From: Candidatus Endomicrobium embiratermitis
Lineage (GTDB): Bacteria; Elusimicrobiota; Endomicrobiia; Endomicrobiales; Endomicrobiaceae
Reading direction: 5' to 3'
Length of the DNA stretch: 64,000 bases
Assembly (NCBI GenBank): GCA_009781315.1
Contig: WQYI01000002.1
Location: 61,415 to 125,414, forward strand
Shown: positions 5,370-62,330 of the stretch, piece by piece
How positions within the stretch are numbered: the stretch's first letter is position 1
Layout: each line of letters opens with the position of its first letter
Notes under the pieces: generated by a model
Database searches by the model: none
Told to the model about the DNA's origin: nothing
What the model saw: only the letters and a program-made list of their open reading frames with translations
Made by a program: the position numbers and the translations under genes

Positions 5370-5373
5370 AGGC

Positions 5374-5408
5374 AAAGTTCAAAGTGTAAAGTGAAAAGTT
5401 CAAAGAGC
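5374..5408. repeat. Solo arm of the AAAGTGAAAAGTG composite-element family (family 2)
   Basis: caaagttcaaagtgtaaagtgaaaagttcaaagagc matches the 5' arms of the elements at 37186, 49014, 55535 and 61361, but no core or partner arm follows. Confidence 0.5.
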
Positions 5409-5409
5409 A

Positions 5410-5439
5410 TTGACATACCTATTGCAGTTATTGTATAAT
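5410..5439 (+). promoter_or_regulatory. Sigma-70-type promoter, TTGACA-N18-TATAAT with a TG just upstream of the -10
   Basis: cattgacatacctattgcagttattgtataatt; near-consensus hexamers about 165 nt upstream of the infC coding region. Confidence 0.6.
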
Positions 5440-8089: not shown

Positions 8090-8794
8090 ATGAAAAAGAG
8101 ACAATTTGGCGTTATAGGGCTTGGAACTTTCGGATTTAACGTCGCCGCAGAGCTTGCAAAAAAAGGCATGCAGGTTCTCGCCATAGACAATGATACGGAG
8201 ATAATCAACAGAATAAGCGAATCCGTCACTCAGGCTTTGGTCGTTGACGCGACGGACGAAAAAGCTATGTTTAACGCGGGGATTGCCGACTGCGACAGCG
8301 TGATTATTTCAATAGGCGAAAGCATAGAAACCAGCATACTTGCGACTTTAATCGTAAAAGAACTGGGCGTTAAAAACGTTATAGTAAAATGCGTAAGTTT
8401 GTGGCATTCCAAAGTCGCGGCGAAACTCGGCGCGGACACCGTGGTTTACCCTGAGTTTGAAATGGCAAAAAAACTTGTCGACAGCATAATTACTCCTAAT
8501 ATTTTAGAGCAGATAGAACTTTCAAAAGATTATAATCTTTTGGAGATAGTCGCTCCTAAAGAATTCTGGGGAAAAACAATTAAAACTTCCGGCATAAGAA
8601 ACAATTACGGCATAAACGTCATCGCGGTGAGAAAACAAATTCCCATTGTAGACGATAACGGGCATACCGACATAAAAGAAGAAATAAATATGGTTCCGGG
8701 AGCCGATGACGAAATAAACCAAAATGACGTGTTAGTAGTGGTAGGTTCTCATAGTTCTCTCGAAAAAATTAAAAAAATAAAGGATATTAAATGA
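8090..8794 (+). CDS. TrkA/KtrA NAD-binding regulatory subunit
   Basis: 234 aa; Rossmann GxGxxG (GLGTFG) plus TrkA-C domain. Confidence 0.8.
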   Translation: MKKRQFGVIGLGTFGFNVAAELAKKGMQVLAIDNDTEIINRISESVTQALVVDATDEKAMFNAGIADCDSVIISIGESIETSILATLIVKELGVKNVIVKCVSLWHSKVAAKLGADTVVYPEFEMAKKLVDSIITPNILEQIELSKDYNLLEIVAPKEFWGKTIKTSGIRNNYGINVIAVRKQIPIVDDNGHTDIKEEINMVPGADDEINQNDVLVVVGSHSSLEKIKKIKDIK

Positions 8795-12537: not shown

Positions 12538-12545
12538 TCCTAGTT

Positions 12546-12613
12546 GTCATTCCGTTGGAAAACGGGATCCACGTTATTAGTTAAAAATGGATTCCGTTTT
12601 TCAACGGAATGAC
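12546..12613. repeat. Nested palindrome, GTCATTCC-type
   Basis: gtcattccgttggaaaacgggatcc ... ggattccgttttcaacggaatgac. Confidence 0.7.
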
Positions 12614-12651
12614 ACGACAAGAACAGGGGGGGGTAAGAAACTCGATTGATA

Positions 12652-15061: not shown

Positions 15062-15172
15062 AATTCCTCCAATTATTAATGGTTAACGGTTAATGATTAA
15101 TTATATGAGTGTGCTTTGCGTACCTTTCAATTAAAAAAGGTTCTGTCTTGAACAATAATTAACCATTTATCA

Positions 15173-15820: not shown

Positions 15821-15831
15821 TTTAACAACCG

Positions 15832-15920
15832 GAAGTTGAGAAGATGGGAAGCTGAGATGTTGAGCAACGACTTTGTCTTTGCTTTTTCCAAACTTCTCAT
15901 CATCTCATCTTCTTATCTTC
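15832..15920. repeat. Composite palindromic element, GAAGTTGAGAAG family (family 3), copy 1
   Basis: 5' arm gaagttgagaagatgggaagctgagatgttgagcaacgac is nearly identical to the arm at 28094; 3' arm ccaaacttctcatcatctcatcttcttatcttc. Confidence 0.7.
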
Positions 15921-15925
15921 TGCCT

Positions 15926-18611: not shown

Positions 18612-18790
18612 AAACGATTTTTCGTTTTGTTTATTCAAGCGCCGAGCGCATTCATTAAAAATTTTTAAAACAATTTGCGGAACTTGCGGCAGATAAAGAC
18701 TTATAAGGTTGCCGCTTCAAACAGTCCTCAATAGATTTTTAAAAAAATTTAATTCATAGACCGCGCTAATGCGCTTTGCATAAACAAAAC
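18612..18790 (-). mobile_element. MITE-like ~175-bp element with terminal inverted repeats (same family as 52262-52440, opposite orientation)
   Basis: The reverse complement aligns along its whole length with 52262-52440; termini gttttgtttatgcaaagcgc / gcgcttgaataaacaaaac. Confidence 0.7.
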
Positions 18791-18892
18791 AGGGTATTTC
18801 AAGACAACGACAAAGACGAGGAGGCTAGTATTTAAAGCAAGCAGTTGGAAAGGCAGGTAGTATTAGCAGTGATAATATATCTATAAATAAAA

Positions 18893-21912: not shown

Positions 21913-21933
21913 TTATTGACAAAAAACGCAAAC

Positions 21934-22032
21934 GGCAGAGGCAGAGATGCGGAGATGCAGGGAAAAGACAAAAGCAAAGACAGTTGTGTCGTTAACTCCG
22001 CATCTCTGCCTCTCTGCATCTCCACATCTGCA
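21934..22032. repeat. Composite palindromic element, family 4, copy 2 (divergent intergenic region)
   Basis: gcagaggcagagatgcggagatgcaggg ... ctccgcatctctgcctctctgcatctccacatctgc. Confidence 0.7.
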
Positions 22033-22096
22033 GTTTTGACACTACATATACTATTTTGATATCATTACGGAAATAATCATACAAAAAGAGGCATAG

Positions 22097-24153: not shown

Positions 24154-24155
24154 AA

Positions 24156-24268
24156 GACAAATAACAATTAACAAATGATAATTTACAATTAACGGCAAAA
24201 AACTATAGCAACAAGTTGACTTTAATTGTTATTTGTAAATTGTAAACTGTTAATTGTGGTTAATTGGG
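24156..24268. repeat. Composite palindromic element, TAACAATTAACAAAT family (family 1)
   Basis: aaataacaattaacaaatgataatttacaattaacgg ... ttaattgttatttgtaaattgtaaactgttaattgtggttaattgg; the 3' end runs into the GGGGG SD of dapA. Confidence 0.7.
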
Positions 24269-26755: not shown

Positions 26756-26880
26756 TTACTTGTCTTTAAATATCCGGAGCGTTCTATTCGTCTGTCATTC
26801 CCGCGAAAGCGGGAATCCAAGTTTAACATGACTCCCCTATTAAGACATTCGGGGATGACAAAAGGAAGGGTTTAAAACCT
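26756..26880. repeat. Palindromic element, GTCATTCCCGCGAAAGCGGGAATC type
   Basis: gtcattcccgcgaaagcgggaatc plus tcccctattaagacattcggggatgacaaaagg; the same core recurs at 40355-40390. Confidence 0.65.
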
Positions 26881-26928: not shown

Positions 26929-28101
26929 ATGAATAAAAAGCAATTGAGCGGTTACGTATCTGATATAATTGAAGATATAAAAGAAAACGGCGATAAAGCC
27001 GTTTATAAATATCTCAAAAAATTTGACGGCGTTGATTTATCGCTAAAAGGATATAAAATATCTAAAAAAACGATAGACGATGCTGCCAAACGCGTTTCTC
27101 CCTCTTTAAAAAATGCTATAAAATCATCGTATCTTAATATTTTGTCATACCATAAATACGAATATTTGCAAATTAAAAAAAGCTGGGTCAGAAATAAAAA
27201 CGGCGTTAAGACGGGTCAATTTTACTCTGCGGTTGAGTCCGCGGGGATATATGTTCCGGGCGGTAAATTCCCTTATCCTTCTACTGTTATAATGACTGCC
27301 GTTCCTGCAAAAGCCGCGGGAGTTAAAAGAATTGTCATGGTAACCCCGCCAAATAATATTAGCGATGAAGTTCTTTATGCCGCTCAACTTTGCGGCGTTA
27401 CGGATGTATACGGCGTAGGCGGAATTATGGCGATTGCCGCTCTTGCTTACGGCACGCAGACAGTTAAAAAAGTCGATATTATAGCAGGTCCCGGAAACGC
27501 CTATGTGAACGAGGCCAAAAGGCAGGTTTTCGGCCGGGTAGGCATAGATTCTTTGGCAGGTCCCAGCGAAGTGGCTATAATAGCCGATAAAAGCGTTCCC
27601 GTAAAATACGTTGTTGCCGATATTATGGCGCAGGTTGAACATGACGCTATGGCTAAAGCTTATTTGTTTTGCGAAAGCCAATCAAAGATTGGGAAAATAA
27701 AAGAAGCTTTGCCAAAAGAAGCTCTTAGTCAGGTTGAAATTGAACTTTGTTCATTAGATAAAGCGGTTGAAAAAGTAAATAAAATCGCTCCAGAACATCT
27801 TGAGATTCTTGTTGAAAATTATTTAAAACTTGTCAAAAACATTAAAAACGCCGGCGCAATTTTTGCGGGTTATCAAACGCCTACGGCCGCCGGAGATTAC
27901 TGGGCGGGACCGTCTCATGTTTTGCCTACAAACGCTTCCGCGAAGTTTTCAAGCGGGTTGTCTGTTATGTCGTTTTTGAAAAGGACGACATATATTGAAT
28001 TGAACAAAAATAATGCTAAAGCCTATAAAGAAATTGCGGATTTTGCGCGCTGCGAAGGAATGAAATATCATAAAGAATCGGCCGATATAAGAAGAAGTTG
28101 A
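26929..28101 (+). CDS. hisD: Histidinol dehydrogenase
   Basis: 390 aa; Zn/NAD-binding motifs (AGPSEVAII; EHLEI). Confidence 0.88.
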   Translation: MNKKQLSGYVSDIIEDIKENGDKAVYKYLKKFDGVDLSLKGYKISKKTIDDAAKRVSPSLKNAIKSSYLNILSYHKYEYLQIKKSWVRNKNGVKTGQFYSAVESAGIYVPGGKFPYPSTVIMTAVPAKAAGVKRIVMVTPPNNISDEVLYAAQLCGVTDVYGVGGIMAIAALAYGTQTVKKVDIIAGPGNAYVNEAKRQVFGRVGIDSLAGPSEVAIIADKSVPVKYVVADIMAQVEHDAMAKAYLFCESQSKIGKIKEALPKEALSQVEIELCSLDKAVEKVNKIAPEHLEILVENYLKLVKNIKNAGAIFAGYQTPTAAGDYWAGPSHVLPTNASAKFSSGLSVMSFLKRTTYIELNKNNAKAYKEIADFARCEGMKYHKESADIRRS

Positions 28102-28204
28102 GAAGTTGGGCAGCTGGGAAGTTGAGCAACGACGAAGGTAAAGACAAAAGACGAAACGACCACAGCTCCTCTCAGCTTCTCAACTGCCAAGCTCTCTAAA
28201 CTTC
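28094..28204. repeat. Composite palindromic element, family 3, copy 2; its 5' arm overlaps the hisD stop codon
   Basis: gaagttgagaagttgggcagctgggaagttgagcaacgacgaagg ... cagctcctctcagcttctcaactgccaagctctctaaacttc. Confidence 0.7.
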
Positions 28205-28222
28205 CGCCATAAGGAATGTTAA

Positions 28223-30397: not shown

Positions 30398-30493
30398 AGG
30401 CAAAGAGGCAGGGATGCAGAGTAACTGCTCTTGAAATAAAGGCAGTTTTTGTTGTCTTTGCTCCGCATCTTTGCATCCTCGCATCCATGCATC
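30398..30493. repeat. Composite palindromic element, family 4, copy 3 (between hisA and hisF)
   Basis: aggcaaagaggcagggatgcagag ... ctccgcatctttgcatcctcgcatccatgcatc. Confidence 0.7.
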
Positions 30494-31260: not shown

Positions 31261-31282
31261 ATAAAGAAAAAAGGGGGACAAA

Positions 31283-32745: not shown

Positions 32746-33141
32746 GTGGAAAAGATAATAAAAGTTTTAAAGTTCGATGACAAAGGATTAATTCCGGCCG
32801 TAGTGCAGGACTGGAAAGACAATGCCGTTTTAATGGTCGCGTATATGAATAAAGAGGCTGTTTTAAGAACCCTTAAAACAAAAAAAGCTACTTTCTGGAG
32901 CCGTTCAAGGCAGTCTTTTTGGGTAAAAGGCGAAAGTTCCGGAAATATCCAGAAAGTCAAAGAATTTTATTATGACTGCGACGGCGACTGCATACTTTTA
33001 AAAGTTAACCAAATCGGCGGAGCGGCGTGCCATACGGGGCATAGAAGCTGCTTTTTTACAAAAGTTACTTCGACCGGCAATACTAAAACCATTGGAAAGA
33101 AGTTGTTTGATCCGGAGAAAGTCTACAAAAAAGACAAGTAA
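32746..33141 (+). CDS. hisI: Phosphoribosyl-AMP cyclohydrolase
   Basis: 131 aa; CDGD and CHTG metal-binding motifs; HisI only, no HisE fusion. Confidence 0.88.
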
Positions 33142-33215
33142 CAATTTACAAATAACAATGAAAAACAATGTTTTTGTCGTTTTGTCGTTAATTGTAAATT
33201 ATTAATTGAAAATTG
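33139..33215. repeat. Composite palindromic element, family 1
   Basis: taacaatttacaaataacaatg ... cgttaattgtaaattattaattgaaaattgg; the 3' end supplies the GGAG RBS of trpF. Confidence 0.65.
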
Positions 33216-33850: not shown

Positions 33851-33876
33851 AGGCAATTACGAATTATAAATTTCGG

Positions 33877-34851: not shown

Positions 34852-34855
34852 AAAG

Positions 34856-34958
34856 CAATTAACAAATAACAATTTACAATTGACAAATGAAAACTGTCAA
34901 AAAAATTTAATTATTATTTATAATCTGTTAATTGTGCTTTGTTAATTATTAATTGTCT
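34856..34958. repeat. Composite palindromic element, family 1
   Basis: aattaacaaataacaatttacaattgacaaatg ... taatctgttaattgtgctttgttaattattaattg, followed by GGGGG. Confidence 0.7.
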
Positions 34959-34975
34959 TTATGGGGGAATTGAAA

Positions 34976-35784: not shown

Positions 35785-35915
35785 CGAAGTGTCATCCTGA
35801 ATCCCCGATTACGAATTTCGAGGATAAACTCCGTGAAGGATCCATGTTAAACTGTTATCTATTCTTCAATGCTTCGCATTTCAGAATGACAACAACGGCA
35901 ATGATTAGAGGTATT
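35785..35915. repeat. Long imperfect palindrome, GACGCGAAGTGTCATCC type
   Basis: tgacgcgaagtgtcatcctgaatc ... gcttcgcatttcagaatgacaac; the 5' end is related to 58258-58280. Confidence 0.6.
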
Positions 35916-37176: not shown

Positions 37177-37185
37177 TTCAAACAA

Positions 37186-37308
37186 CAAAGTTGAAAGTGA
37201 AGAGAGAAAAGAGGAAATGTCGTATTTCGGCAAATCCGAAATTAATTTTAGGTTTTCGCTTTGCGAAAACACAATAATTTCACTTTTAACTTTACACTTT
37301 TCACTTTT
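37186..37308. repeat. Composite palindromic element, family 2 (AAAGTGAAAAGTG)
   Basis: Arms caaagttgaaagtgaagagag / ttcacttttaactttacacttttcacttttc; core hairpins tttcggcaaatccgaaa and ttttcgctttgcgaaaac. Confidence 0.75.
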
Positions 37309-37324
37309 CTTTTGAGGTATTAAA

Positions 37325-40305: not shown

Positions 40306-40314
40306 ATGAAACAA

Positions 40315-40450
40315 TTAGGAATTAGGAGTGAGGAGTTAGGAATTAACGACAAAAGACTTTGTCATTCCCGCGAAAGCGGGAATCTAAGTTTTCTAAAAGT
40401 TTGCGGCGAAGCCGCTCCAAAATTCCTAATTCCTAATTTCTAACTCCTAA
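40315..40450. repeat. Composite palindromic element, ATTAGGAATTAGGAG arm flavour
   Basis: Arms attaggaattaggagtgaggagttaggaatt / aattcctaattcctaatttctaactcctaatt; core gtcattcccgcgaaagcgggaat plus tttgcggcgaagccgctccaaaatt. Confidence 0.75.
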
Positions 40451-40473
40451 TTAAATATAAAGAGGGGATATTT

Positions 40474-41983: not shown

Positions 41984-42000
41984 TAAAACAGTTAGTAATT

Positions 42001-42100
42001 AGTAGTGAGTAGTTAGTAGTTGTTGTGCGGGGCTTTGCCCCGCTAATAAACAGGTGCGCAAAGCGCACTCCAAAATTACTCACTATTCACTACTCACTGA
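42001..42100. repeat. Composite palindromic element, AGTAGTGAGTAG arm flavour
   Basis: Arms cagttagtaattagtagtgagtagttagtag / tactcactattcactactcactg; core gcggggctttgccccgc plus gtgcgcaaagcgcactccaaaatt. Confidence 0.75.
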
Positions 42101-45998: not shown

Positions 45999-46006
45999 TA
46001 ACAGCA

Positions 46007-46102
46007 GAAGTTTAGATGTTTGGCAGCTTGGAAGCTTGGCAAAAACAAAAGGCAGTTACTAAGCTTCCAAACTTCTAAGCTCTCTAAACTCTCTAAACTT
46101 CT
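46007..46102. repeat. Composite palindromic element, family 3, copy 3 (between tadB and tadC)
   Basis: gaagtttagatgtttggcagcttggaagcttggc ... aagcttccaaacttctaagctctctaaactctctaaacttc. Confidence 0.7.
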
Positions 46103-47035: not shown

Positions 47036-47098
47036 GGTTTTGTTTATGTAAAGCGCGTTAGTGCGAATGCGTGCGGCGCTTGAATAAACAAAACAAAA
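47036..47098. mobile_element. Internally deleted derivative of the MITE-like element (terminal inverted repeats only)
   Basis: gttttgtttatgtaaagcgcgttagtgcg ... cgtgcggcgcttgaataaacaaaac, matching both ends of 52262-52440. Confidence 0.6.
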
Positions 47099-47106
47099 AA
47101 TATTGA

Positions 47107-47701: not shown

Positions 47702-48991
47702 ATGTCAACATTAGTCGTTTTGGGCACCCAGTGGGGAGATGAAGGCAAAGGCAAAGTAGTTCATTATCTCGCAAAACAGGCAGACTATATTGTACGTTAT
47801 CAGGGCGGAAATAACGCGGGACATACCTTAATTTATGAAAACAAGCCTTTTGTGCTGCACCTTATACCTTCGGGGATATTATTTCCGGATAAAATGTGTT
47901 TAATTACAAACGGAGTCGTAGTTGACTCGAAAGCCTTAAGAGAAGAAATTATTCTTTTAAATAAGAAAAAAATTCCCGTTAAAGGAAGATTTTTTATAAG
48001 CGAACAGGCGCATGTTATTTTGCCTTATCACAAATTAATCGATGGAATTCTTGAAGAAGGGCAGGTCAAAATAGGAACTACCAAAAGAGGAATAGGTCCT
48101 GCTTATGCCGATAAAGTTAAAAGAATAGGCATAAGGGTGGTTGACTATATAGAAAAAGACGTATTTATAGATTTACTTGAGAAAAATTTTATCGAAAAAG
48201 CGCCTATCTTAGAAAAAAGCGGCGTAAATATAGCCAAACTTAAAAAAGAAATATTAAACGATCATAAGATTCTTTCGAAGTTCATAAAGCCTTTTGTGAC
48301 CGACACAAGTTTAATGCTTGAAGCCGCAATGAAAAAGAATAAAAAAGTTTTATATGAAAGCGCTCAGGGGACGATGCTTGACTTAGATTTCGGAACATAT
48401 CCGTTTGTGACGTCGTCAAACCCTATAGCCGGCGGAGTATGTACGGGCGCGGGTATAGGACCTACGCAGGTGCAGAAAGTTTTAGGAGTCGTAAAGGCTT
48501 ATACTACGAGAGTAGGGGAAGGTCCTTTTGCAGTAGAACTTTTCGATAAAATGGGCGAATATTTGAGAGAAAAGGGCGGAGAATACGGCGCGACTACAGG
48601 CAGACCGCGCCGCTGCGGCTGGTTTGACGCCGTTGTTGTGCGTCACAGCGTAAGAGTAAGCGGAATAAAACATTTGATACTTACAAAGCTCGACTGTATG
48701 GAAGATATAGAGAAAATAAAAATTTGCGTTGCATATAAATATAAAGGTAAAATTTATAAGGAGTTTCCTTCGTCAAGAACCGTTCAAGCGGGATGCAAAC
48801 CCGTTTATGAAGAATTTCCGGGTTTTAACGGAAAAGTCAAAGGAATCACGGATTTTAAAAAACTTCCCGTGAACGCGCAAAAGTATGTTAAACGCCTTGA
48901 ACAGCTTGTCGGGGCCGATATAGATTTGATATCTCTCGGACGTAAACGGGAAGAAACAATAGAAGTGCGCAAAGGCGTTAAGTGGTTTTAA
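47702..48991 (+). CDS. purA: Adenylosuccinate synthetase
   Basis: GTQWGDEGKGK P-loop; start at the second ATG (MSTLVV...), preceded by AAGGTGG. Confidence 0.92.
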   Translation: MSTLVVLGTQWGDEGKGKVVHYLAKQADYIVRYQGGNNAGHTLIYENKPFVLHLIPSGILFPDKMCLITNGVVVDSKALREEIILLNKKKIPVKGRFFISEQAHVILPYHKLIDGILEEGQVKIGTTKRGIGPAYADKVKRIGIRVVDYIEKDVFIDLLEKNFIEKAPILEKSGVNIAKLKKEILNDHKILSKFIKPFVTDTSLMLEAAMKKNKKVLYESAQGTMLDLDFGTYPFVTSSNPIAGGVCTGAGIGPTQVQKVLGVVKAYTTRVGEGPFAVELFDKMGEYLREKGGEYGATTGRPRRCGWFDAVVVRHSVRVSGIKHLILTKLDCMEDIEKIKICVAYKYKGKIYKEFPSSRTVQAGCKPVYEEFPGFNGKVKGITDFKKLPVNAQKYVKRLEQLVGADIDLISLGRKREETIEVRKGVKWF

Positions 48992-49013
48992 TAAAAGCAG
49001 AGTAAGAATAATA

Positions 49014-49146
49014 AAAAGTGTAAAGTTGAAAGTTAAAAGTGAAAATTACGTGTTTTCGCTTTGCGAAAACTAATTAATTTGATTTCGGCTTTGTCGAAAT
49101 TCATTATTTTAACTTTGCACTTCTCACTTTTCACTTTGTCGTTAAA
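49014..49146. repeat. Composite palindromic element, family 2 (core hairpins in swapped order)
   Basis: aaaagtgtaaagttgaaagttaaaagtgaaaat ... gttttcgctttgcgaaaac ... gatttcggctttgtcgaaat ... ctttgcacttctcacttttcactttgtcgttaaaaaagg. Confidence 0.75.
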
Positions 49147-49159
49147 AAAGGCGGAGCCT

Positions 49160-49855
49160 TTGAAAGTAAAACTTCTTAAATTTACCAATGATCCGGAAAA
49201 AACCTGCGCTATAGCGGCGAGGCTTTGCTACAGCGCTGCGGGAATAGACGAGATTACCGAAAAATTTACGAAAGAGAAAGTTAAAGAACTTCTTGATAAA
49301 GTTATTTCGTCGGGGCATCAATCCGTTTTGGAGCACGCGTCGTTTTCTTTCGGAATAGAAGGCGTCTCCCGCGCTTTGCTTGCCCAGCTTACAAGACACA
49401 GAATAGCGTCATTTTCCGTGCAAAGCCAGAGATATGTGAAATTTAAAAACGGTGTGGAGTTTGTTACTCCCGATACTGTAAAAAAACAAAAAGCTTTGCT
49501 TTTAAAATTCGATAATTTTTTAAAAGAAGTCGAAAAACTTTACGAATATTTTTTGGAAGCCGGAATTCCGGCGGAAGACGCAAGATATGTTTTGCCTAAC
49601 GCTTCCGCTACGAAAATAATAATAACGATGAACGCCAGAGAGTTAAGGCATTTTTTCGCTTTAAGGTGCTGTAACAGAGCGCAGTGGGAAATAAGAGATA
49701 TGGCTTGCAGGATGTTAAATCTTGTCCGCAAAGAAGCCCCCGTGCTCTTTTCTGACGCGGGGCCTGATTGCGTGAAAGGCGGTTGCCACGAAGCTTTCCC
49801 GTGCGGAAAACCGTGGACAAAGTCCCGGATAAAGTCCGAAAAATACTCGATATAA
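49160..49855 (+). CDS. thyX: Flavin-dependent thymidylate synthase ThyX
   Basis: ThyX RHRxxxxxS motif (LAQLTRHRIASFSVQSQRY). Probable TTG start (MKVKLLKF...) after AAAAAAGGCGGAG. The ORF track start at 49061 reads through the repeat. Confidence 0.85.
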   Translation: MKVKLLKFTNDPEKTCAIAARLCYSAAGIDEITEKFTKEKVKELLDKVISSGHQSVLEHASFSFGIEGVSRALLAQLTRHRIASFSVQSQRYVKFKNGVEFVTPDTVKKQKALLLKFDNFLKEVEKLYEYFLEAGIPAEDARYVLPNASATKIIITMNARELRHFFALRCCNRAQWEIRDMACRMLNLVRKEAPVLFSDAGPDCVKGGCHEAFPCGKPWTKSRIKSEKYSI

Positions 49856-51263: not shown

Positions 51264-52178
51264 ATGAAAAGACATTTTTCTATCGCCGTATGTTTGGTAT
51301 TTATTATGAGCGTTTTTATCCCGTCTTTTTTGCATGCGGAAGATTATATGGTCTACGAAGACGGAGTTGTTGTTATGGTTGAAGACAAAAATTCTGAAGA
51401 TGAGACGGCCTCCGTAAATAAAAATGACGACGAAAATGATGTAAGCGAAGAAACGACAACCGTTACTGACGAGCACAAAGACTCGGAAGATGATAATACG
51501 GCGTCCGTAAATGAAAATGAGAACGAAAATGCAAGCGAAGAACCGACAACCGTTACTGACGAGCGCAAAAATTCGGAAGATAATAAAACGGCGGCCGTAA
51601 ATAAAAATAACGACGAAAATGTAAGCGAAGAAACGAAAACCGTTGCTGACGAGCGCAAAGATTCGGAAGATAATAAGACTGCATCCGTAAATGAGAATGA
51701 AGACGAGGATGAAAATAGTTTTGTCTACATAGGAAACGAAAGGAAAACTCGCGCAAATGCGAGTAAATTTAATGAATCCGGTAACGATAATGTTTCTGTA
51801 AATGAAAATAAAGAAAGAGGCGTAAAGGCACAGACGGCAAAGCCGAAACCGCAACAAGCGAAACCGCAGCAAGCGCAAAATACAGGTCCTAAACCTAACC
51901 AGGACGAACAGGCAATAGCAAAAAAAGTTCAGGAATATTATAATGAGTTTATGAAAAATCCTAAAGTGGTATCTTTTATTAAGTTTCTTTCAAAAAGATG
52001 GGAAGAAATAAAAGCTTTTGTTTCTGAGCTTCCGGGAATCAAGCAGTATAACAACTCTATATATACAAACGAAAACTACAAAAAAGAGATGGGAGCTTTT
52101 TCCACTGAATACAAACCTCATATACAGAGTAACAGCGAAGGCGTTCAAAAAGCCAAAGAAGGTGCAAAAAAGCTTTAA
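51264..52178 (+). CDS. Secreted acidic tandem-repeat protein (hypothetical)
   Basis: Signal peptide, then about 3.5 imperfect ~31-aa repeats (TTTVTDE[HR]K[DN]SED[DN][NK]TA[SA]VN[EK]N[EDN]...), a Q/P-rich segment (KPKPQQAKPQQAQNTGPKPNQ) and a folded-looking ~100-aa C-terminal domain. Confidence 0.6.
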   Translation: MKRHFSIAVCLVFIMSVFIPSFLHAEDYMVYEDGVVVMVEDKNSEDETASVNKNDDENDVSEETTTVTDEHKDSEDDNTASVNENENENASEEPTTVTDERKNSEDNKTAAVNKNNDENVSEETKTVADERKDSEDNKTASVNENEDEDENSFVYIGNERKTRANASKFNESGNDNVSVNENKERGVKAQTAKPKPQQAKPQQAQNTGPKPNQDEQAIAKKVQEYYNEFMKNPKVVSFIKFLSKRWEEIKAFVSELPGIKQYNNSIYTNENYKKEMGAFSTEYKPHIQSNSEGVQKAKEGAKKL

Positions 52179-52261
52179 TATCGTAAATTTTGTGCTTCTT
52201 CTTTCCGAGGCTGTTGAGAGAGAAAATTACTGGAATTTATTTATAAATTTTTGTCTTTAAA

Positions 52262-52440
52262 AACCCTGTTTTGTTTATGTAAAGCGCATTAGCGTGGCTT
52301 ATGAATTAAAAATTTTTAAAAATCTTGAGGACTGTCCGAAGCGGCAACCTTATAAGCCTTTATTTGCCGCAAGTTCCGCAAACTGTTTTAAAAATTTTTA
52401 ATGAATGCGCTCGGCGCTTGAATAAACAAAACGAAAAAGC
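52262..52440 (+). mobile_element. MITE-like ~175-bp element with ~20-bp imperfect terminal inverted repeats
   Basis: gttttgtttatgtaaagcgcattagcg ... cgctcggcgcttgaataaacaaaacg, with internal sub-palindromes; full copy at 18612-18790 (inverted) and deleted copy at 47036-47098. Confidence 0.7.
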
Positions 52441-52624: not shown

Positions 52625-53107
52625 ATGAAATGTCCTTTTTGCGGAAGTTTTGAAGACCAAGTGCTTGATTCCCGCCCGATTGAACATTTGCCTGCCGTAA
52701 GGCGGCGCAGAGAATGTTCCGGCTGTAAAAAAAGGTATACCACTTTTGAAAGGCCTGAAGAAATAAGCCTTATGGTTGTTAAATCTGACCAAAGCAGGCA
52801 GCCTTTTGACAGAAAAAAGATTTGGGAAGGCATAGACAGAGCGTGCCGCAAACGTCCTATTGCCGTTGAAACAATAGACAAAATCGTAAGCGAAATAGAA
52901 AACGAGCTGACAGGCGAATACGTTATGGAAATACCGTCAAGCGTTATAGGACAGAAAATTTTAGATAAACTTTGGGACGTAGACCTTGTGGCGTATATAA
53001 GGTTTGCTTCGGTATATAGAAAATTCGGCGACATAGACACTTTTATGGCCGAACTTAAAAAACTTAAAAAAGAACATATAAAAAGACAATTGAAAAATAA
53101 CAAATAA
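52625..53107 (+). CDS. nrdR: Transcriptional repressor NrdR
   Basis: MKCPFCGSFEDQVLDSR zinc ribbon plus ATP-cone. Confidence 0.92.
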   Translation: MKCPFCGSFEDQVLDSRPIEHLPAVRRRRECSGCKKRYTTFERPEEISLMVVKSDQSRQPFDRKKIWEGIDRACRKRPIAVETIDKIVSEIENELTGEYVMEIPSSVIGQKILDKLWDVDLVAYIRFASVYRKFGDIDTFMAELKKLKKEHIKRQLKNNK

Positions 53108-53196
53108 CAGATAACAATTAAAAACGGCTGTAGTAATAAGGCAGCTTTGAAGTTTTAATTAATTTGTCAATTGTAAATTGTTAATTGTTGTTAATC
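53098..53196. repeat. Composite palindromic element, family 1 (between nrdR and nrdJ)
   Basis: aacaaataacagataacaattaaaaacgg ... ttaattaatttgtcaattgtaaattgttaattgttgttaatc followed by TGGGGG. Confidence 0.7.
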
Positions 53197-53208
53197 TGGG
53201 GGTTGAAA

Positions 53209-55527
53209 ATGGCACAAAACACTAAAGAGGAGCTTATTTCCGAAAACAGTGCAAAACTTGAAAAAAACGCGCTTACGGTTTTGCAAAAAAGATATTTAGG
53301 AAAAGACAGTAACGGCAATATAATTGAAGAACCGGAAGATTTATTTTACAGAGTGGCCGAAAATATTGCCCAGGCTGATAAAATATATGATAAAGACGCG
53401 GATTTGGCGTTTTTGATCAAAGAATTCTATTTGGCTATGTCGTCCCTTGATTTTTTGCCTAACTCTCCGACTTTGATGAACGCAGGCAGGCATTTACAGC
53501 AGCTTTCGGCGTGTTTTGTGCTTCCGATAGAAGATTCAATGGATTCTATATTTGAAACCCTTAAAAATACCGCTCTTATACATAAGTCGGGCGGCGGAAC
53601 TGGATTTTCTTTTTCAAGGCTGCGTCCTAAAAATGATAATGTAAAAACCACAAGCGGCGTGTCTTCGGGACCGGTATCTTTTATGCAGGTTTTTAACGCC
53701 GCTACGGAAGCCATTAAACAGGGCGGAACAAGACGCGGCGCGAATATGGGTATGCTTCGCGTTGATCATCCGGACATTTTAGACTTCATTACCTGTAAAG
53801 ACAGAAACGACAGCCTCAATAATTTCAATATTTCCGTGGCCGTGACAAAAGAGTTTATGGAGGCTTTGGAAGAAGAGACTGACTATAATCTTTATAATCC
53901 GCGCACTAAAGAAGCGGCGGGAACGCTTAACGCAAAAGAAGTTTTCAATAAAATAGTCGATCAGGCGTGGAAAAACGGCGAGCCGGGTATAGTTTTTATA
54001 GACAGGATGAACGACGCTAATCCTACTCCCGAAGCGGGGCTTATTGAATCGACAAACCCATGCGGCGAACAGCCGCTTCTCCCTTACGAGTCTTGCAATT
54101 TAGGATCGATAAATTTAAGTCATTTTGTAAAAGAGGGACAGGTTGACTGGGAAAGGCTTGAGAGTATTATTAAAACGGCGGTTCATTTTTTGGATAATGT
54201 TATAGACATGAACAATTATCCGATACAAAAAATCGGCGAGACCACGCGTTCTAACAGAAAAATCGGGCTTGGCGTTATGGGATGGGCTGATATGCTTTTA
54301 AGTTTAGGCATACCGTACGGTTCGCATGATTCTTTAATGCTTGCGGAAAAAGTTATGGGTTTTATACAATCCAAGTCGCACGAAGCTTCCGAAGAACTTG
54401 CTCTTAAAAGAGGAGCTTTCCCGAATTTTAAACAAAGTATATACGGCAAAGGAAATCCTATAAGAAACGCTACTACCACGACTATTGCTCCGACAGGCAC
54501 AATAGGCATTATAGCGTCGGCTTCGGGCGGTATAGAACCTATTTTTGCGCTTGTCTATAAAAGGGCAAATTGTCTGGATAACGCGGAAATGTACGAAGTG
54601 AACCCTCATTTTGAAAAAGTCGCAAAAGAACAGGGATTTTATTCCGCCGAACTTATGGATAAAATTGCCGAAAAAGGCAGCGTGCACGGGTTAAAAGAAG
54701 TTCCGGAAAAAATAAAAAAAGTTTTCGTCACCGCTCAGGACATTACGCCCGAAGACCATATAAGAATGCAGGCGGCTTTCCAGAAATTTACGGACAATGC
54801 CGTGTCAAAAACCGTAAACTTTCCTAATTCCGCTACTAAAGAAGACGTAAAAAAAGTTTATATGCTTTCGTATAAAATGGCTTGCAAAGGCGTAACGGTT
54901 TACCGCGACGGCAGCAGGGATTTACAGGTTTTAAATCTGGCAAATAAAAAAGAAACCGTTCAGTCTCAAGGAGAAATTAAAGAAAAAAAGCCGAGAACCA
55001 GGCCTAAAAAAACAATGGGATTCACGTTTTTAATGCATACGGGCTGCGGAAAGATGTATGTTACGATAAATGAAGATGAGCAGGGAGCGTGCGAGTTGTT
55101 TACGCAGCTCGGTAAATCAGGAGGCTGTACGTCGTCCCAGTCTGAAGCGGTCGCCCGTATGATTTCTTTGGCATTGCGTTCCGGCGTTAATCAGCAGGAT
55201 ATAATAAATCAGTTAAAAGGCATAAGATGTCCGTCGCCGACTTTGGCCGAAGGCGGAGCTATATTGTCTTGCGCGGACGCGGTTGCAAAAGCCCTCGAAG
55301 CTTACGCAAAAGAAAAACAAACTCCGGCTCTTTTTACCGAGGAAGTGATAAATTCCGAGCCGTATGCTCCGGTTGAAGAAAATAGCCGCCCTTCGGCGTC
55401 GTATTCTTCGGATATAAAAAATAATTTTTCAGGTTCATGCCCGCAATGTCCGGAATGCGGAGAGATGCTTACTTTTTCCGAAGGGTGCGTTGTGTGCAGG
55501 GACTGCGGATATAGTAAATGCTGGTAG
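53209..55527 (+). CDS. nrdJ: Adenosylcobalamin-dependent ribonucleoside-diphosphate/triphosphate reductase (class II, NrdJ)
   Basis: About 772 aa from MAQNTKEEL; active-site NPCGEQPL motif; C-terminal CxxC...CxxC zinc ribbon. Confidence 0.88.
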   Translation: MAQNTKEELISENSAKLEKNALTVLQKRYLGKDSNGNIIEEPEDLFYRVAENIAQADKIYDKDADLAFLIKEFYLAMSSLDFLPNSPTLMNAGRHLQQLSACFVLPIEDSMDSIFETLKNTALIHKSGGGTGFSFSRLRPKNDNVKTTSGVSSGPVSFMQVFNAATEAIKQGGTRRGANMGMLRVDHPDILDFITCKDRNDSLNNFNISVAVTKEFMEALEEETDYNLYNPRTKEAAGTLNAKEVFNKIVDQAWKNGEPGIVFIDRMNDANPTPEAGLIESTNPCGEQPLLPYESCNLGSINLSHFVKEGQVDWERLESIIKTAVHFLDNVIDMNNYPIQKIGETTRSNRKIGLGVMGWADMLLSLGIPYGSHDSLMLAEKVMGFIQSKSHEASEELALKRGAFPNFKQSIYGKGNPIRNATTTTIAPTGTIGIIASASGGIEPIFALVYKRANCLDNAEMYEVNPHFEKVAKEQGFYSAELMDKIAEKGSVHGLKEVPEKIKKVFVTAQDITPEDHIRMQAAFQKFTDNAVSKTVNFPNSATKEDVKKVYMLSYKMACKGVTVYRDGSRDLQVLNLANKKETVQSQGEIKEKKPRTRPKKTMGFTFLMHTGCGKMYVTINEDEQGACELFTQLGKSGGCTSSQSEAVARMISLALRSGVNQQDIINQLKGIRCPSPTLAEGGAILSCADAVAKALEAYAKEKQTPALFTEEVINSEPYAPVEENSRPSASYSSDIKNNFSGSCPQCPECGEMLTFSEGCVVCRDCGYSKCW

Positions 55528-55534
55528 TATACGA

Positions 55535-55666
55535 CAAAGTAGAAAGTTAAAAGTGTAAAGTGAAAATATTGTGTTTCGGCAAAGCCGAAACAGAGTTTAG
55601 GTTTTTGCAAAGCAAAAACACATCTTAACTTTTAACTCTTCACTTTTCACTTTGTCGTTAAAAAAG
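55535..55666. repeat. Composite palindromic element, family 2
   Basis: caaagtagaaagttaaaagtgtaaagtgaaaat ... gtttcggcaaagccgaaac ... gtttttgcaaagcaaaaac ... cttaacttttaactcttcacttttcactttgtcgttaaaaaaggg. Confidence 0.8.
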
Positions 55667-55672
55667 GGATTT

Positions 55673-56260
55673 ATGGTAAAAAGCGATAAATGGATTAAAC
55701 GGATGGCTCTTGATAAGAAAATCATAGAGCCGTTTGAAGCCGGGCAAATAAAACAAATAGACGGTAAAGGCGTTATATCTTTCGGCACTTCGTCTTATGG
55801 TTACGATATGCGTTTGTCAGACGAGTTTATGGTTATGAAAGTCCGTACCGGACAGGAAGGCCAAGGAAGTGTTGAAGCGCTTGACCCTAAAAATTCAGCC
55901 GAAAGGCTGTTTGAACCCATAAAAGTAAAAGATTACATAATAATCCCGCCCAACTCAATTGTTTTGGGAAAAACTATAGAGTATTTTAGAATACCGAGAG
56001 ACATTGTCACAATAGCGTTCGGTAAATCTACTTACGCAAGGTGCGGCATTTTTGTAAATGTAACGCCGTTTGAGCCGGAGTGGGAAGGGTATGTAACTCT
56101 TTCTATAGCAAATACTACGGCTTTGCCGGTAAAAGTATATGCCAATGAAGGTATTGCCCAGGTTCTTTTTTTAGGCCCGGACGAAATGTGTGAAATATCG
56201 TATGCCGACAGAAAAGGCAAGTATCAGGCTCAAAAAATCATAACTTCGGCGAAAATTTAG
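55673..56260 (+). CDS. dcd: dCTP deaminase
   Basis: Begins [21 protein letters not shown]; dUTPase-like fold. The ORF track start at 55652 lies in the repeat. Confidence 0.88.
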
Positions 56261-58249: not shown

Positions 58250-58340
58250 TAAAATTGACACGAAGTGTCACCCCGTTGAAAAACGGGGTCTCAGTTAATA
58301 ATAAACATGGATACCGACTTTCGTCGGTATGACAAAAGAT
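58250..58340. repeat. Cluster of three short hairpins, GACACGAAGTGTCACC type
   Basis: gacacgaagtgtcac; ccccgttgaaaaacgggg; ataccgactttcgtcggtat. Confidence 0.6.
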
Positions 58341-60397: not shown

Positions 60398-60495
60398 TTA
60401 ACAATTAACAATTAATAATGAACAATTGTTGAGCGCGCTTTGCGCGCATATAATTTGCGGCTTTGCCGCTCCAAAATTGTTATTTGTAATTTGGT
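60396..60495. repeat. Composite palindromic element, family 1 (between pstC and pstA)
   Basis: aattaacaattaacaattaataatgaacaattg ... gagcgcgctttgcgcgc ... ttgcggctttgccgctccaaaattg ... ttatttgtaatttgg. Confidence 0.75.
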
Positions 60496-61357: not shown

Positions 61358-61360
61358 TTT

Positions 61361-61492
61361 TAACGACAAAGTGAAGAGTGAAAAGTGTAGAGTGTAAATA
61401 TTGTGTTTCGGCGAAGCCGAAACGGATTAAATGTTTTTGCAAAGCAAAAACTCATTATTTCCACTTTTAACTTTCAACTTTTCAAATTGTCT
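61361..61492. repeat. Composite palindromic element, family 2 (between pstA and pstB1)
   Basis: acgacaaagtgaagagtgaaaagtgtagagtg ... gtttcggcgaagccgaaac ... gtttttgcaaagcaaaaac ... ccacttttaactttcaacttttcaaattgtc. Confidence 0.8.
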
Positions 61493-61504
61493 CTGCAGGT
61501 AAAA

Positions 61505-62254: not shown

Positions 62255-62261
62255 TAACGGC

Positions 62262-62320
62262 AGTTAACAATTTACAAATAATAATTAACAAATTTGTTTT
62301 AAATTGTTAATTATAAATTG
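62262..62320. repeat. Composite palindromic element, family 1 (short; between pstB1 and pstB2)
   Basis: cagttaacaatttacaaataataattaacaaatttgttttaaattgttaattataaattgg followed by AG. Confidence 0.65.
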
Positions 62321-62330
62321 GAGTTTTGAT

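Follow-up and report, generated by a model that had tools for sequence, protein, structure and literature searches.

Palindromic repeats between stop codons and ribosome sites in Endomicrobium: probably dispersed MITE/REPIN-like elements, before thyX and dcd as before unrelated genes

The dcd gene (dCTP deaminase TIGR02274, 132.6 bits) follows nrdJ, which encodes a B12-dependent ribonucleotide reductase (1215 bits), and the spacer between them is occupied by a long palindromic element of family 2. Four full copies of this family, about 130 nt each, and one solo arm were found in the window, i.e., the whole stretch of 64 kb that was analyzed. The search was performed by nhmmer with a profile built from the four copies and gave no further match above 12 bits in the rest of the window. 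An earlier note on this DNA had listed these five elements, and all are present where it placed them, the full copies with 121-136 bits and the solo arm as a weak match (E ~0.01). NCBIfam gave clear identities for thyX, dcd and pstB; glk is a ROK-family glucokinase with a score slightly under the curated cut-off. The window is rich in genes of nucleotide metabolism (purA, thyX, nrdJ, dcd, guaA and folC), and about 20 of its spacers carry analogous hairpins. The density is about one hairpin element per 3 kb. The features are as follows.

5367-5404, no strand assigned: solo arm directly 3' of the thrS stop codon (nhmmer E ~0.01 on both strands, weak match)
37179-37316, plus strand: full family-2 copy, folC/glk spacer (nhmmer 128 bits; fold z -5.0)
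49010-49145, minus strand: full family-2 copy, purA/thyX spacer (nhmmer 121 bits on the minus strand vs 48 on the plus strand)
55525-55527, plus strand: nrdJ stop codon TAG, 3 nt 5' of the family-2 copy (ORF 53185-55527)
55531-55658, plus strand: full family-2 copy, nrdJ/dcd spacer, with the terminal inverted repeat ACGACAAAG...CTTTGTCGT as limits (nhmmer 55529-55660, 128 bits)
55531-55569, plus strand: 5' arm of this copy, tip ACGACAAAG followed by A/G-rich 7-nt words
55573-55591, plus strand: core hairpin A of this copy, GTTTCGGC-AAA-GCCGAAAC
55601-55619, plus strand: core hairpin B of this copy, GTTTTTGC-AAA-GCAAAAAC
55620-55658, plus strand: 3' arm of this copy, T/C-rich, complementing the 5' arm, last motif CTTTGTCGT
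55664-55675, plus strand: A-rich/SD-like AAGGGA of the host and dcd ATG, directly 3' of the copy and not in the stem
61360-61497, plus strand: full family-2 copy, pstA/pstB spacer within the pst operon (nhmmer 136 bits; z -6.3)

The elements end in an 8-nt terminal inverted repeat, AACGRCAG...CTGYCGTT, in which the AA/TT beside CGRCAG/CTGYCG is part of the repeat, and well-preserved copies read TTAAC...GTTAA at the tips. A tip that is intact on both sides occurs only in a minority of copies. The arms are about 35 nt long with about five 7-nt words each; whichever orientation the core has, the 5' arm is A-rich and the 3' arm T-rich. The centre is formed by two 8-bp hairpins, GTTTCGGC-NNN-GCCGAAAC and then GTTTTYGC-NNN-GCRAAAAC, which make up 19-nt palindromes (GTTTCGGC...GCCGAAAC and GTTTTCGC...GCGAAAAC). 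Their loop sequences form complementary pairs (AAA/TTT, GAA/TTC). The 3' end of the full element is GTTAAAAGGAG and has no T run. This arrangement of an arm, two core hairpins and an inverted-complement arm had been described in the earlier note and was confirmed by sequence and folding. Its further proposal, a swapped hairpin order at 49014 as a sign of modular construction, is explained differently: the whole element is inverted there, as its score of 121 bits belongs to the minus strand. In the element class as a whole, however, recombination of cores and arms does occur. The copy in the purA/thyX spacer seems to be nested in the remnant of an older element (TAATAAAAGCAGAGTAAGAATAAT at 48989-49013).

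The arm word differs from element to element (GAGTGAA, AGAATAG, GGTAATA, GTGAGTA, TTAATAG, TTTGGAG) and is mirrored in the complementary arm. Among 74 aligned copies, every arm alphabet shows an almost constant A (mostly as AG or AGT) at 7-nt intervals; the other arm positions vary between sub-families. An offset scan showed side-maxima of pairing at +/-7, 14 and 21 columns. The solo arm at 5367-5404 consists of the terminal motif and four 7-nt words (AGGCAAAG + TTCAAAG TGTAAAG TGAAAAG), and a promoter-like site (TTGACA-18-TATAAT) lies 3' of it. SD-like motifs are absent from the 45 nt before the ribosome site, where only 3 ATG/GTG were counted, compared to 37 SD-like motifs and 133 ATG/GTG in the 5' arm. 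Stop codons in all three frames arising from the 7-nt words were seen in 23 of 49 copies, with 20 expected from shuffles, which is nothing special.

All four window copies begin 1-18 nt past the upstream stop codons (folC, purA, nrdJ and pstA) and end 6-16 nt before the next start codon. The statement that copies end just before start codons therefore stands as far as these distances are concerned, but the copies lie equally close to the upstream stop codons and fill the spacer entirely. It had also been suggested that the 3' end of the element supplies the RBS. This turned out to be wrong, and the RBS is host sequence, because TGAGGT is already present in the empty orthologous folC/glk spacer and GGCGGAGCCTTTG upstream of thyX is common to genomes whose elements differ. 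The JGI call of thyX begins inside the element.

In 705 kb from five other Endomicrobium genomes, nhmmer gave 147 matches, 116 of them near-full. A pattern scan matched 95 or more 8-kb tiles, which came almost exclusively from Endomicrobia MAGs; these tiles were selected for containing a pattern match, which inflates core conservation and biases occupancy counts. Related elements are carried by the cultured E. proavitum. Pattern matches in Opitutae/Opitutaceae are twin small hairpins in DNA of 63-65% G+C, have no arms and are not members of the family. The copies are dispersed over most contigs and not collected in one array. Gene calls were made by a crude longest-ORF procedure, and none of the 116 copies lies within a frame that stays open over the copy and 150 nt on either side, so that no intragenic copy was found. 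The median gap to the stop codon measures about 1 nt, and the one to the start codon about 13 nt.

Tandem genes flank 60 of the copies in close contexts (81%), divergent genes 10 and convergent genes 4. An enrichment in co-directional spacers was nevertheless rejected, since the genomic baseline of all spacers (435 tandem, 42 divergent, 60 convergent) is likewise 81% tandem. An orientation bias of the core relative to transcription seemed strong among the top-scoring matches, yet overall 28 antisense copies stand against 21 sense copies. The survey of distance and orientation proposed in the earlier note, done here by pattern scan and nhmmer in the five other genomes, supports extragenic placement from stop codon to RBS but no bias of core orientation. 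Ten downstream genes were sampled and are functionally unrelated (lpxA, nitroreductase, surE, asd, rlmB-like, dnaB, holA, M48 peptidase and others). The terminal motif is kept at the downstream end in 25 of 49 copies and at the upstream end in 10 of 49 (p = 0.006). Identity between copies never exceeds 91%, and the nearest neighbour is often found in another species; recent movement is therefore not evident.

The window copies fold at -36 to -48 kcal/mol, compared to about -22 kcal/mol for dinucleotide shuffles (z -5.0 to -7.1), and for each copy 0 of 200 shuffles fold equally well. The nrdJ/dcd copy reaches -45.7 kcal/mol (z -7.1). RNAalifold on a MAFFT alignment returned the two core hairpins only, and the arm pairing was imposed from the column-offset scan. 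In the 74 aligned copies 79.9% of the cells are paired, compared to 38-52% in slid controls, and the arms are 72% paired across copies, compared to 38-52% after a shift of the partner by 1-3 columns. Core hairpin A is paired in 98.5% of cells, with GC/AU covariation of the closing pair (48:23), and core hairpin B in 99.3%, with CG/UA covariation (60:11), values that are raised by the selection of tiles. Changes on both sides occur in 36 of 54 pairs. The covariation is 0.200 vs 0.132 in shuffles, and 0 of 500 shuffles were equally high. For 38 copies outside the search-pattern selection, the core stems are still 88-93% paired and include variant stems such as GTTTCGCC...GGCGAAAC. Identity to the consensus in copies not ascertained by the pattern is 84-89% for the core stems vs 45-63% for the interleaved loops and spacer.

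Comparison of orthologous spacers revealed insertion polymorphism between related genomes. The folC/glk spacer is empty in genome L012 (TAAtgaggtctagtaaaATG), and the pstA/pstB spacer of L052 has 37 nt and contains no full element, possibly an arm remnant. In Ca. E. neocapritermitis, the nrdJ/dcd spacer holds a different, non-homologous hairpin, and in E. proavitum only 18 nt precede dcd. Only the thyX copy among the four window copies has a counterpart in another genome. As to strain variation, an exact-protein look-up with dcd gave no match, and the one with pstB led to the source metagenome contig, which is 100% identical and shows no variation. Many orthologous spacers measure 3-40 nt in one genome vs 100-150 nt in the other, and where a spacer is occupied in both genomes of a species pair, the elements are non-homologous in 8 of 8 cases. 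For 34 pairs compared between species, a biased sample, about 10 are both long, 14 discordant and 10 both short, and the concordance is not above chance.

Taken together, family 2 is probably a sub-family of abundant non-autonomous palindromic repeats (MITE/REPIN-like) in Endomicrobium, with at most a generic effect on expression and a coincidental thyX/dcd pairing. Many copies per genome are observed in several species, with presence/absence and replacement at orthologous spacers and with both core orientations. Their placement is strictly extragenic: they lie 3' of a stop codon and 5' of the A-rich/Shine-Dalgarno stretch that belongs to the following gene. The elements may have spread by transposition or a related copy mechanism that requires the hairpins, and paired changes would keep the structure across sub-families. 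They would survive only in the one slot of tightly packed operons where an additional 130 nt harm no gene. As judged from the operon context, e.g., pstA/pstB, the elements would be co-transcribed and fold into a long imperfect stem. This stem would bring the stop codon of the upstream gene next to the ribosome site of the downstream one, with the SD left single-stranded. In both orientations, the R-to-Y polarity of the arms could prevent decoy SD motifs and decoy start codons from lying near the true start. Expression, if affected at all, would be affected in a generic and secondary manner, by a double-stranded RNase target, by 3'-end protection or by ribosome stalling at the hairpin-abutting stop codon.

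With regard to the generic features of MITEs, family 2 is small, non-coding and multi-copy and has terminal inverted repeats and insertion polymorphism; a parent transposase was not found in the 770 kb of window and tiles. No multi-copy ORF was detected there either, and when about 640 ORFs were compared all-vs-all by BLASTP, the only pairs were orthologues from different species. Target-site duplications (TA, TAA, TTAA, CG) were not consistently found, and the A/T-rich low-complexity flanks (TAAA.../...TAAAA) could mask 2-4 nt. A search of Rfam at gathering and permissive thresholds yielded no family; the best match, a plant miRNA-precursor model with 30 bits vs a threshold of 100, reflects a generic long hairpin. 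A plasmid collection contained no match to the element, and no description of the family was found in the literature on Endomicrobium/Elusimicrobia repeats. The repeat family is apparently undescribed.

A long hairpin before thyX in 7 of 7 genomes and the retention of the downstream tip hint at selection on position rather than pure neutrality. One alternative is a host-selected intercistronic RNA module, in which a long hairpin is kept whatever its sequence, so that the sequence turns over and the place persists. Such a module could be an RNase III-type processing site, a 3' stabiliser of the upstream cistron or a holder of stop codon and ribosome site that preserves translational coupling. 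RNase III-type processing sites lie between the early genes of phage T7. In favour of this reading, all seven Endomicrobium genomes have some long hairpin directly before thyX, downstream of purA as well as of carB. Only two of the seven have a family-2 copy there, and the window and L099 have both junctions in common but not the interior. Moreover, the base of the stem includes or abuts the stop codon and ends just 5' of AAAAGGAG, the downstream terminus is preferentially preserved (p = 0.006), and in the non-ascertained copies the core stems are better kept than loops and spacer. An excess of G:T mismatches is expected where the fold of an mRNA is under selection. However, the search for such a wobble signature in the sense RNA gave 68 G:T vs 100 A:C, the opposite of this excess (p = 0.017). 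The L090 orthologue of the thyX copy, the sole orthologous pair, is 68.5% identical and shows 2 compensatory pairs vs 7 pair-breaking single changes, and the arms are only 72-82% paired. The many empty orthologous spacers, the 14 of 34 length-discordant pairs and the occupancy concordance not above chance in this biased sample also argue against it. We consider a host-selected module possible but unlikely.

An undescribed class of modular stop-to-ribosome-site hairpin cassettes, with common 8-nt tips, a 7-nt arm grammar, interchangeable arm alphabets and cores and mutual replacement at the same junction in different species, appears doubtful. If it existed, it would imply a new mechanism of targeting or replacement, e.g., tip-specific exchange or insertion aimed at stop codon and RBS. 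Alternatively, it would imply selection for a long intercistronic hairpin as an operon-wide insulator or processing signal, possibly with a protein that reads the 7-nt periodicity.

It is very unlikely that the elements are terminators or attenuators, in which the GC-containing core hairpins and the T-rich 3' arm halt or pause the polymerase in either direction. A consensus scan flags core hairpins with T-rich tails at 49052-49070, 49081-49101, 55572-55592 and 61433-61451, and the arms have the A-rich/T-rich polarity known from bidirectional terminators. However, this loose consensus is satisfied only by the small core hairpins, whose stems have 3-5 G-C pairs and whose tails are interrupted T runs, and the whole arm is paired with its partner instead of being single-stranded. 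Copies also occur inside operons that need read-through, e.g., pstA/pstB, and copies between convergent genes are not enriched (4 of 74 vs a baseline of 11%).

Integron attC sites are imperfect palindromes of about 60-140 bp between the stop of one ORF and the next ORF, with AAC...GTT ends. A recombination site of this kind, recombined at the DNA level as a folded single strand, would match family 2 in general layout (about 130 bp, imperfect palindrome, position between stop codon and RBS, outer triplets in TTAAC...GTTAA). Different interiors at the same junctions across species resemble cassette replacement, and the complementary loop pairs indicate flipping at the DNA level. Despite the AAC...GTT as in R''/R' boxes, identity with attC was rejected. 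GRCAG/CTGYC after AAC is fully complementary, leaving no unpaired central spacer, and the arms align at one constant offset with 37 pairs, leaving no conserved extrahelical bases or bulges. The flanks are housekeeping genes in conserved operon order (pstCAB, nrdJ-dcd-guaA) and not cassettes, the copies are spread over most contigs without a single array, and the core is found in both orientations. The chance that these are attC-like sites is minimal.

Equally improbable is an array for a multimeric RNA-binding protein, which would recognize the conserved di- or trinucleotide every 7 nt in the single-stranded 5' arm and open the hairpin by binding. HutP reads NAG-N4 repeats and TRAP reads GAG/UAG repeats, and the nearly invariant A (mostly AG/AGT) among positions that vary by sub-family is reminiscent of both. 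However, conservation of the periodic positions is matched by that of their complements in the 3' arm, as simple pairing predicts, and the SD is not sequestered by the hairpin. Heptamers are the commonest long simple tandem repeats in bacteria and are ascribed to slippage (PMC4679880).

Hardly credible at all is the suggestion of the earlier note that thyX and dcd, both of the dTMP pathway, are placed under coordinated post-transcriptional control by a shared 5' leader. Both genes do have a family-2 copy 6-13 nt before the start codon in this genome and the thyX copy is retained in Th196P4bin33, but of the other two window copies one stands before glk and one before pstB, and unrelated genes follow at least 100 copies elsewhere. 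The thyX copy is opposite in orientation to the dcd copy, 5 of 7 thyX spacers hold other families, the dcd spacer of Ca. E. neocapritermitis is taken by another element and that of E. proavitum by none, and the SD outside the stem leaves no obvious switch. Conservation upstream of the orthologues of one pathway together with absence elsewhere is not the pattern of family 2. Two related genes among four copies are unremarkable, because about 20 spacers carry hairpins and the window is rich in nucleotide genes, and the pairing looks coincidental. The same note named a REP-like role as fallback, and this view of a dispersed element whose influence on mRNA is generic at most is consistent with the evidence.

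If the interpretation as non-autonomous repeats is true, a regulatory connection of thyX with dcd that was attractive but false is removed, and a dense, undescribed repeat class is documented in Endomicrobia, a model for genome reduction in termite-gut symbionts. Such elements break assemblies, mislead the calling of start codons and inflate apparent intergenic conservation; the processing of operon mRNA may also be shaped by them. Their anatomy, with variable complementary arms, a conserved twin-hairpin centre and placement between stop codon and RBS, is suited for the study of diversification that keeps a fold.

Several known systems resemble family 2. REP, BIME and REPIN elements are mobilized by RAYT (IS200/IS605-like Y1) transposases, and protection of mRNA 3' ends has been proposed for them, as well as ribosome stalling for REP elements near the stop codon. 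Like these, family 2 is extragenic, occurs within operons and has paired small G+C-containing hairpins with a structure kept by paired changes, without a consistent target duplication or a terminal transposase gene. In contrast to them, its hairpin pair lies side by side within an outer stem of much greater length, and no RAYT gene stood out in the 770 kb of window and tiles. REP is defined as an imperfect palindrome of 20-40 nt, one end of which carries a conserved GTAG or CGTC tag (PMC3733652); the core hairpins of family 2 have no such tag.

[quoted passage not shown] These double-hairpin and palindromic-microsatellite elements of organelles share with family 2 the presence/absence between close species (PMC7218506). 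However, they are eukaryotic, have no sequence relationship to it and are not positioned by stop codons or ribosome sites. The TAACTGA heptamer repeats of Beggiatoaceae, cyanobacteria and Bacteroidetes occur in runs of 2-6 or more 7-nt units, with strain-specific indels in 7-nt steps (PMC4679880). As for family 2, they lie a few nt from start codons or over stop codons, beside unrelated genes including essential ones (PMC4679880). They are direct copies of one fixed heptamer, whereas each family-2 element has its own word with a complementary arm, a hairpin core and terminal inverted repeats.

The Correia/NEMIS elements of Neisseria and the ERIC elements of enterobacteria are co-transcribed MITE hairpins, of which Correia is cut by RNase III and can invert, and ERIC unmasks an RNase E site (PMC10969869). 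They are, like family 2, non-coding palindromes of 100-200 nt in tens to hundreds of copies, intergenic, often adjacent to genes and in both orientations (PMC10969869). A sequence relationship was not found by the Rfam search, which had no bacterial repeat family among its matches. Family 2 also differs from both in that neither a TA or other target duplication was detectable nor a sigma-70 promoter or IHF site identified. Instead of conserved 26-bp terminal repeats, its arms are hypervariable arrays of 7-nt words, and it is the centre and the 8-nt tip that are conserved.

A profile of the four family-2 copies was searched back against the 64-kb window with nhmmer. The search revealed four strong matches and one weak partial match, and beyond these nothing above noise in the window:

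61360-61497, plus strand, family-2 copy between pstA and pstB, 136 bits
55529-55660, plus strand, family-2 copy between nrdJ and dcd, 128 bits
37179-37316, plus strand, family-2 copy between folC and glk, 128 bits
49010-49145, minus strand, family-2 copy between purA and thyX, 121 bits
5367-5404, weak partial family-2 match, E about 0.01

The shared architecture described in an earlier note can be read in all four strong matches, and the solo arm which it had placed at 5374-5408 coincides with the partial match, although this match is weak. Directly past the solo arm and the thrS stop codon lies a near-consensus promoter (TTGACA-18-TATAAT, 5410-5439), ahead of a putative infC leader and gene (infC by eye only). 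Each copy folds into a long imperfect outer stem around two 8-bp hairpins, with energies of -36 to -48 kcal/mol compared to about -22 for dinucleotide shuffles (z = -5.0 to -7.1; 0 of 200 shuffles folded as well). The swapped hairpins of the copy at 49014 had been taken to suggest modular construction. However, this copy reaches 121 bits in minus-strand and 48 bits in plus-strand orientation, and its reverse complement is colinear with the other copies, so the whole near-palindromic element is inverted and its modules are not shuffled. The neighbours were confirmed with NCBIfam as folC and a ROK-family glucokinase, purA and thyX, the B12-dependent nrdJ and dcd, and pstA and pstB. The copies occupy the whole spacer of these co-directional gene pairs, one of them within the pst operon. 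They do end just ahead of start codons (6-16 nt), as had been observed before, and lie equally close to the upstream stop codon (1-18 nt).

Outside the window, one genome of each prokaryotic species was scanned with a degenerate pattern of the twin-hairpin core. The pattern matched in at least 95 tiles of 8 kb, and among the matches listed nearly all came from termite-gut Endomicrobia MAGs, with Ca. Endomicrobium neocapritermitis, Th196P4bin33, Cu122P5bin43, Ca. E. labiotermitis and EPI_MAG_00026 as source genomes. The window is 66-84% identical at the DNA level to syntenic tiles of the matched Endomicrobium genomes and thus represents another Endomicrobium species; a 5-kb contig identical to window sequence is present in JGI metagenome 3300009826. 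In 705 kb of tiles, which were picked for holding a core match and therefore bias estimates of conservation and occupancy, nhmmer identified 147 non-overlapping family-2 matches, 116 of them near full length. The highest identity between any two copies is 91% or less, and the nearest neighbour often comes from another species. Three Opitutae tiles were rejected as family-2 members, since they hold only two small hairpins in DNA of 63-65% G+C. The small-hairpin pairs of Opitutae/Opitutaceae MAGs (L040:4078-4122, L069:2427-2472 and L092), TTTCGGC...GCCGAAA and GTTTTGGC...GCCAAAAC, are spaced as in the family-2 core, have no arms and may be an unrelated REP-like pair.

No reading frame stays open across any of the 116 near-full copies together with 150 nt of flank on both sides. 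With gene calls from a crude longest-ORF procedure, the close contexts were co-directional in 60 cases, divergent in 10 and convergent in 4, compared to 435, 42 and 60 for all spacers of the same DNA. The co-directional share is 81% for both, and the position ahead of a start codon is therefore simply a product of gene density. The core lies antisense to transcription in 28 copies and sense in 21. The placement is tight: at its upstream end the element touches or overlaps the stop codon (median distance about 1 nt), and about 13 nt separate its downstream end from the start codon. Its downstream tip, CTGYMGTT, lies 13-17 nt from the start codon and is followed by AAAA(A)GGRG, with the SD just outside the stem. 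The 45 nt of 3' arm ahead of the ribosome site contain 0 SD-like motifs and 3 ATG/GTG, versus 37 and 133 for the 5' arm. The same is true of both orientations of the element, as an R-then-Y palindrome remains R-then-Y when reverse-complemented. Stops in all three frames are not commoner than in shuffles. The public (JGI) thyX call of 239 aa is 8 residues longer than that from the TTG start at 49160 common to the relatives (window 49136-49160) and so starts inside the element, an example of how repeats of this kind can mislead start-codon annotation.

Orthologous spacers were compared by synteny with four loci, L052 and L012 of Ca. E. neocapritermitis, L053, and L090 of Th196P4bin33. The folC|glk spacer is empty in Ca. 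E. neocapritermitis (TAAtgaggtctagtaaaATG), and the window copy thus sits behind the stop codon and ahead of an SD that the host already had. The pstA|pstB spacer of this species (37 nt) has no full element, is not homologous to the window flanks and may hold an arm remnant, and its nrdJ|dcd spacer contains a different hairpin, of GTCATTGCGAGG type. A spacer of only 22 nt in the window (31261-31282) is occupied in both L012 and L053, and the short window spacers 33851-33876 and 60398-60439 are remnants with the left arm only of elements complete in other species. Many of the 34 orthologous spacer pairs differ in length, with 3-40 nt on one side and 100-150 nt on the other, and in all 8 pairs where both genomes have an element the two elements are not homologous.

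Only the thyX copy is shared among the four window copies, with L090 as partner. The two are 68.5% identical (adjacent thyX coding sequence 78%) and differ by 2 compensatory pairs versus 7 pair-breaking single changes. With thyX loci added from five more genomes (seven in total), including the cultured E. proavitum, a long hairpin element was found upstream of thyX in all seven Endomicrobium genomes, with differing arm words and cores:

48992-49159, window
L090:5230-5440, Th196P4bin33
L097:9898-10000, E. proavitum (CP009498)
L098:3898-4000, thyX locus of a further genome
L099:2017-2138, thyX locus of another further genome
L100:3909-4000, thyX locus of another further genome
L101:3924-4000, thyX locus of another further genome

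Upstream of the hairpin lies either purA or carB, depending on the genome. The window and L099 have both spacer junctions in common (TAATAAAAGCAGA... and ...AAAAAGGCGGAGCCTTTG) around unrelated interiors, and the window copy appears to be nested in the remnant of an older element. In addition to its full thyX hairpin, E. proavitum carries solo arms at 8560-8610, 10780-10815 and 15080-15115 of L097, including right arms that end in TTGCCGTTAAAAAGAGG directly ahead of start codons. Therefore, the hairpin class could be studied experimentally in this cultured species.

In an alignment of 74 copies, the 5' arm has a nearly invariant A at intervals of seven bases. When arm pairing was scanned over column offsets, a single offset gave the best value (72%), and the next-best offsets differ from it by multiples of 7 columns (+7, +14, +21, -7, -14). 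RNAalifold alone returned the two core hairpins only, with core covariation at one position per hairpin (GC/AU 48:23, CG/UA 60:11); for the pairing and covariation statistics the arm structure was imposed on the alignment. Standard pairs then fill 79.9% of cells, versus 38-52% with the 3' partner slid by 1-3 columns. Changes on both sides occur in 36 of 54 pairs, and the covariation score is 0.200 versus 0.132 in shuffles (as high in 0 of 500). The arms are paired to 72% and the core stems to 98-99%, the latter figure being inflated by a search pattern that admitted intact stems only. The 38 matches outside this pattern still have 88-93% pairing in the core stems and include variant stems that remain complementary, and their identity to the consensus is 84-89% in the stems versus 45-63% in the interleaved loops and spacer. 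Loop triplets come as complementary pairs (AAA/TTT, GAA/TTC), which suggests that the small palindromes flip at the DNA level. The arm words (GAGTGAA, AGAATAG, GGTAATA, GTGAGTA, TTAATAG, TTTGGAG, GTTCAGA) vary by sub-family, and within an element the partner arm mirrors them; the same arms were also found with a different core (L010:3785). No T run follows the element, and only core hairpins with T-rich tails fit a loose terminator consensus. Sense-strand arm mismatches were counted in the 49 copies of co-directional spacers, where a selected mRNA fold should give more G:T (G·U in sense RNA) than A:C. The counts were 68 G:T and 100 A:C (p = 0.017), the reverse of both mRNA-fold selection and the usual strand-biased deamination.

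Folding of every window spacer revealed long hairpins analogous to family 2 in about 20 of them, for example (approximate positions):

1490-1600
15062-15172
15821-15925
21930-22035
24154-24253
28094-28205
30398-30486
33127-33215
34852-34960
40313-40455
41988-42100
46005-46100
53086-53200
62255-62330

They have a common plan, an A-rich 5' arm and a complementary T-rich 3' arm of short repeated words around 0-2 small G+C hairpins, and the words differ (ACAATTA, GAAGTTG, GCAGAGA, AATTAGG, TTAGTAG and others). Word-armed hairpins occur roughly once per 3 kb in the window, which has 38.9% G+C and for which Rfam gave three tRNAs only. A hairpin repeat of a separate type, TGTCATTCC(C)-loop-GGGAATGACA or GTCATCCTGA..., is located at 12545-12620, 26793-26824, 35790-35905, 40360-40391 and 58260-58340. 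It is sometimes the core of a word-armed element (40306-40473), and the GTCATTGCGAGG hairpin in the nrdJ|dcd spacer of L052 is related to it. A repeat of about 190 nt forms an inverted pair 33 kb apart in long non-coding spacers (18618-18807 and 52251-52438, 89-92% complementary), with a third, partial copy of 37 nt at 47065-47101. At 51400-51714, 3-4 tandem 90-nt repeats (79-87% identical) lie inside ORF 51264-52178 and presumably encode a repetitive protein segment.

Family 2 probably represents a MITE/REPIN-like, non-autonomous palindromic repeat. In line with this, several species carry numerous diverged copies, orthologous sites differ in whether they hold an element and in which one, both orientations occur, placement is strictly extragenic, and the hairpins keep their structure from one sub-family to another. 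Its mobility would follow from comparative presence/absence and not from recent identical copies. Around the tips no consistent target-site duplication was seen, and 770 kb contained no multi-copy ORF. The REP-like alternative raised in the earlier note fits the data as far as it concerns a dispersed repeat with at most a generic effect on mRNA; the GTAG/CGTC tag is absent. In genomes with intercistronic spacers of 10-30 nt, the tight placement may be explained by purifying selection, which would leave elements only in the sole tolerable slot between the stop codon and the A-rich/SD stretch. The element would be transcribed with the operon and fold into a long stem that brings the stop codon next to the ribosome site. 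Generic consequences such as those of Correia, ERIC and REPs near stop codons are plausible here. Correia hairpins are cut by RNase III, those of ERIC by RNase E (PMC10969869).

As the main rival, the long intercistronic hairpin itself could be under selection. This would agree with the hairpin upstream of thyX in 7 of 7 genomes, the well-kept core stems and the tip, which is preserved downstream in 25 of 49 copies versus its complement upstream in 10 of 49 (p = 0.006). However, the wobble test came out the wrong way round (68 G:T versus 100 A:C), the single orthologous pair (thyX, window and L090) diverges near-neutrally and many orthologous sites are empty, so we regard this explanation as unlikely. 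Coordinated control of thyX and dcd in dTMP synthesis through their shared element, as proposed earlier, is highly improbable, since the ten sampled downstream genes have no functional relation to one another: lpxA, a nitroreductase gene, a CpXC protein gene, surE, asd, a SpoU methylase gene, dnaB, holA, an unknown gene and an M48 peptidase gene.

The MITE/REPIN-like element of family 2 resembles both Correia/NEMIS and ERIC in behaviour. With REP/REPIN it has the lack of duplication and the paired small hairpins in common, but not the tag. Like the TAACTGA repeats of Beggiatoaceae (PMC4679880), it places 7-nt words beside start and stop codons, but has no fixed heptamer. Integron attC sites are similar in size, position and AAC...GTT tips, whereas the element has no unpaired spacer or bulged bases and stands in a housekeeping context. 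Given these differences and the lack of any sequence or Rfam match, it belongs to none of these groups. Our literature search found no published description of repeats in Endomicrobia or Elusimicrobia and no earlier description of this element, a dispersed palindromic repeat that stands out by its unusual grammar and its unusually exact niche.
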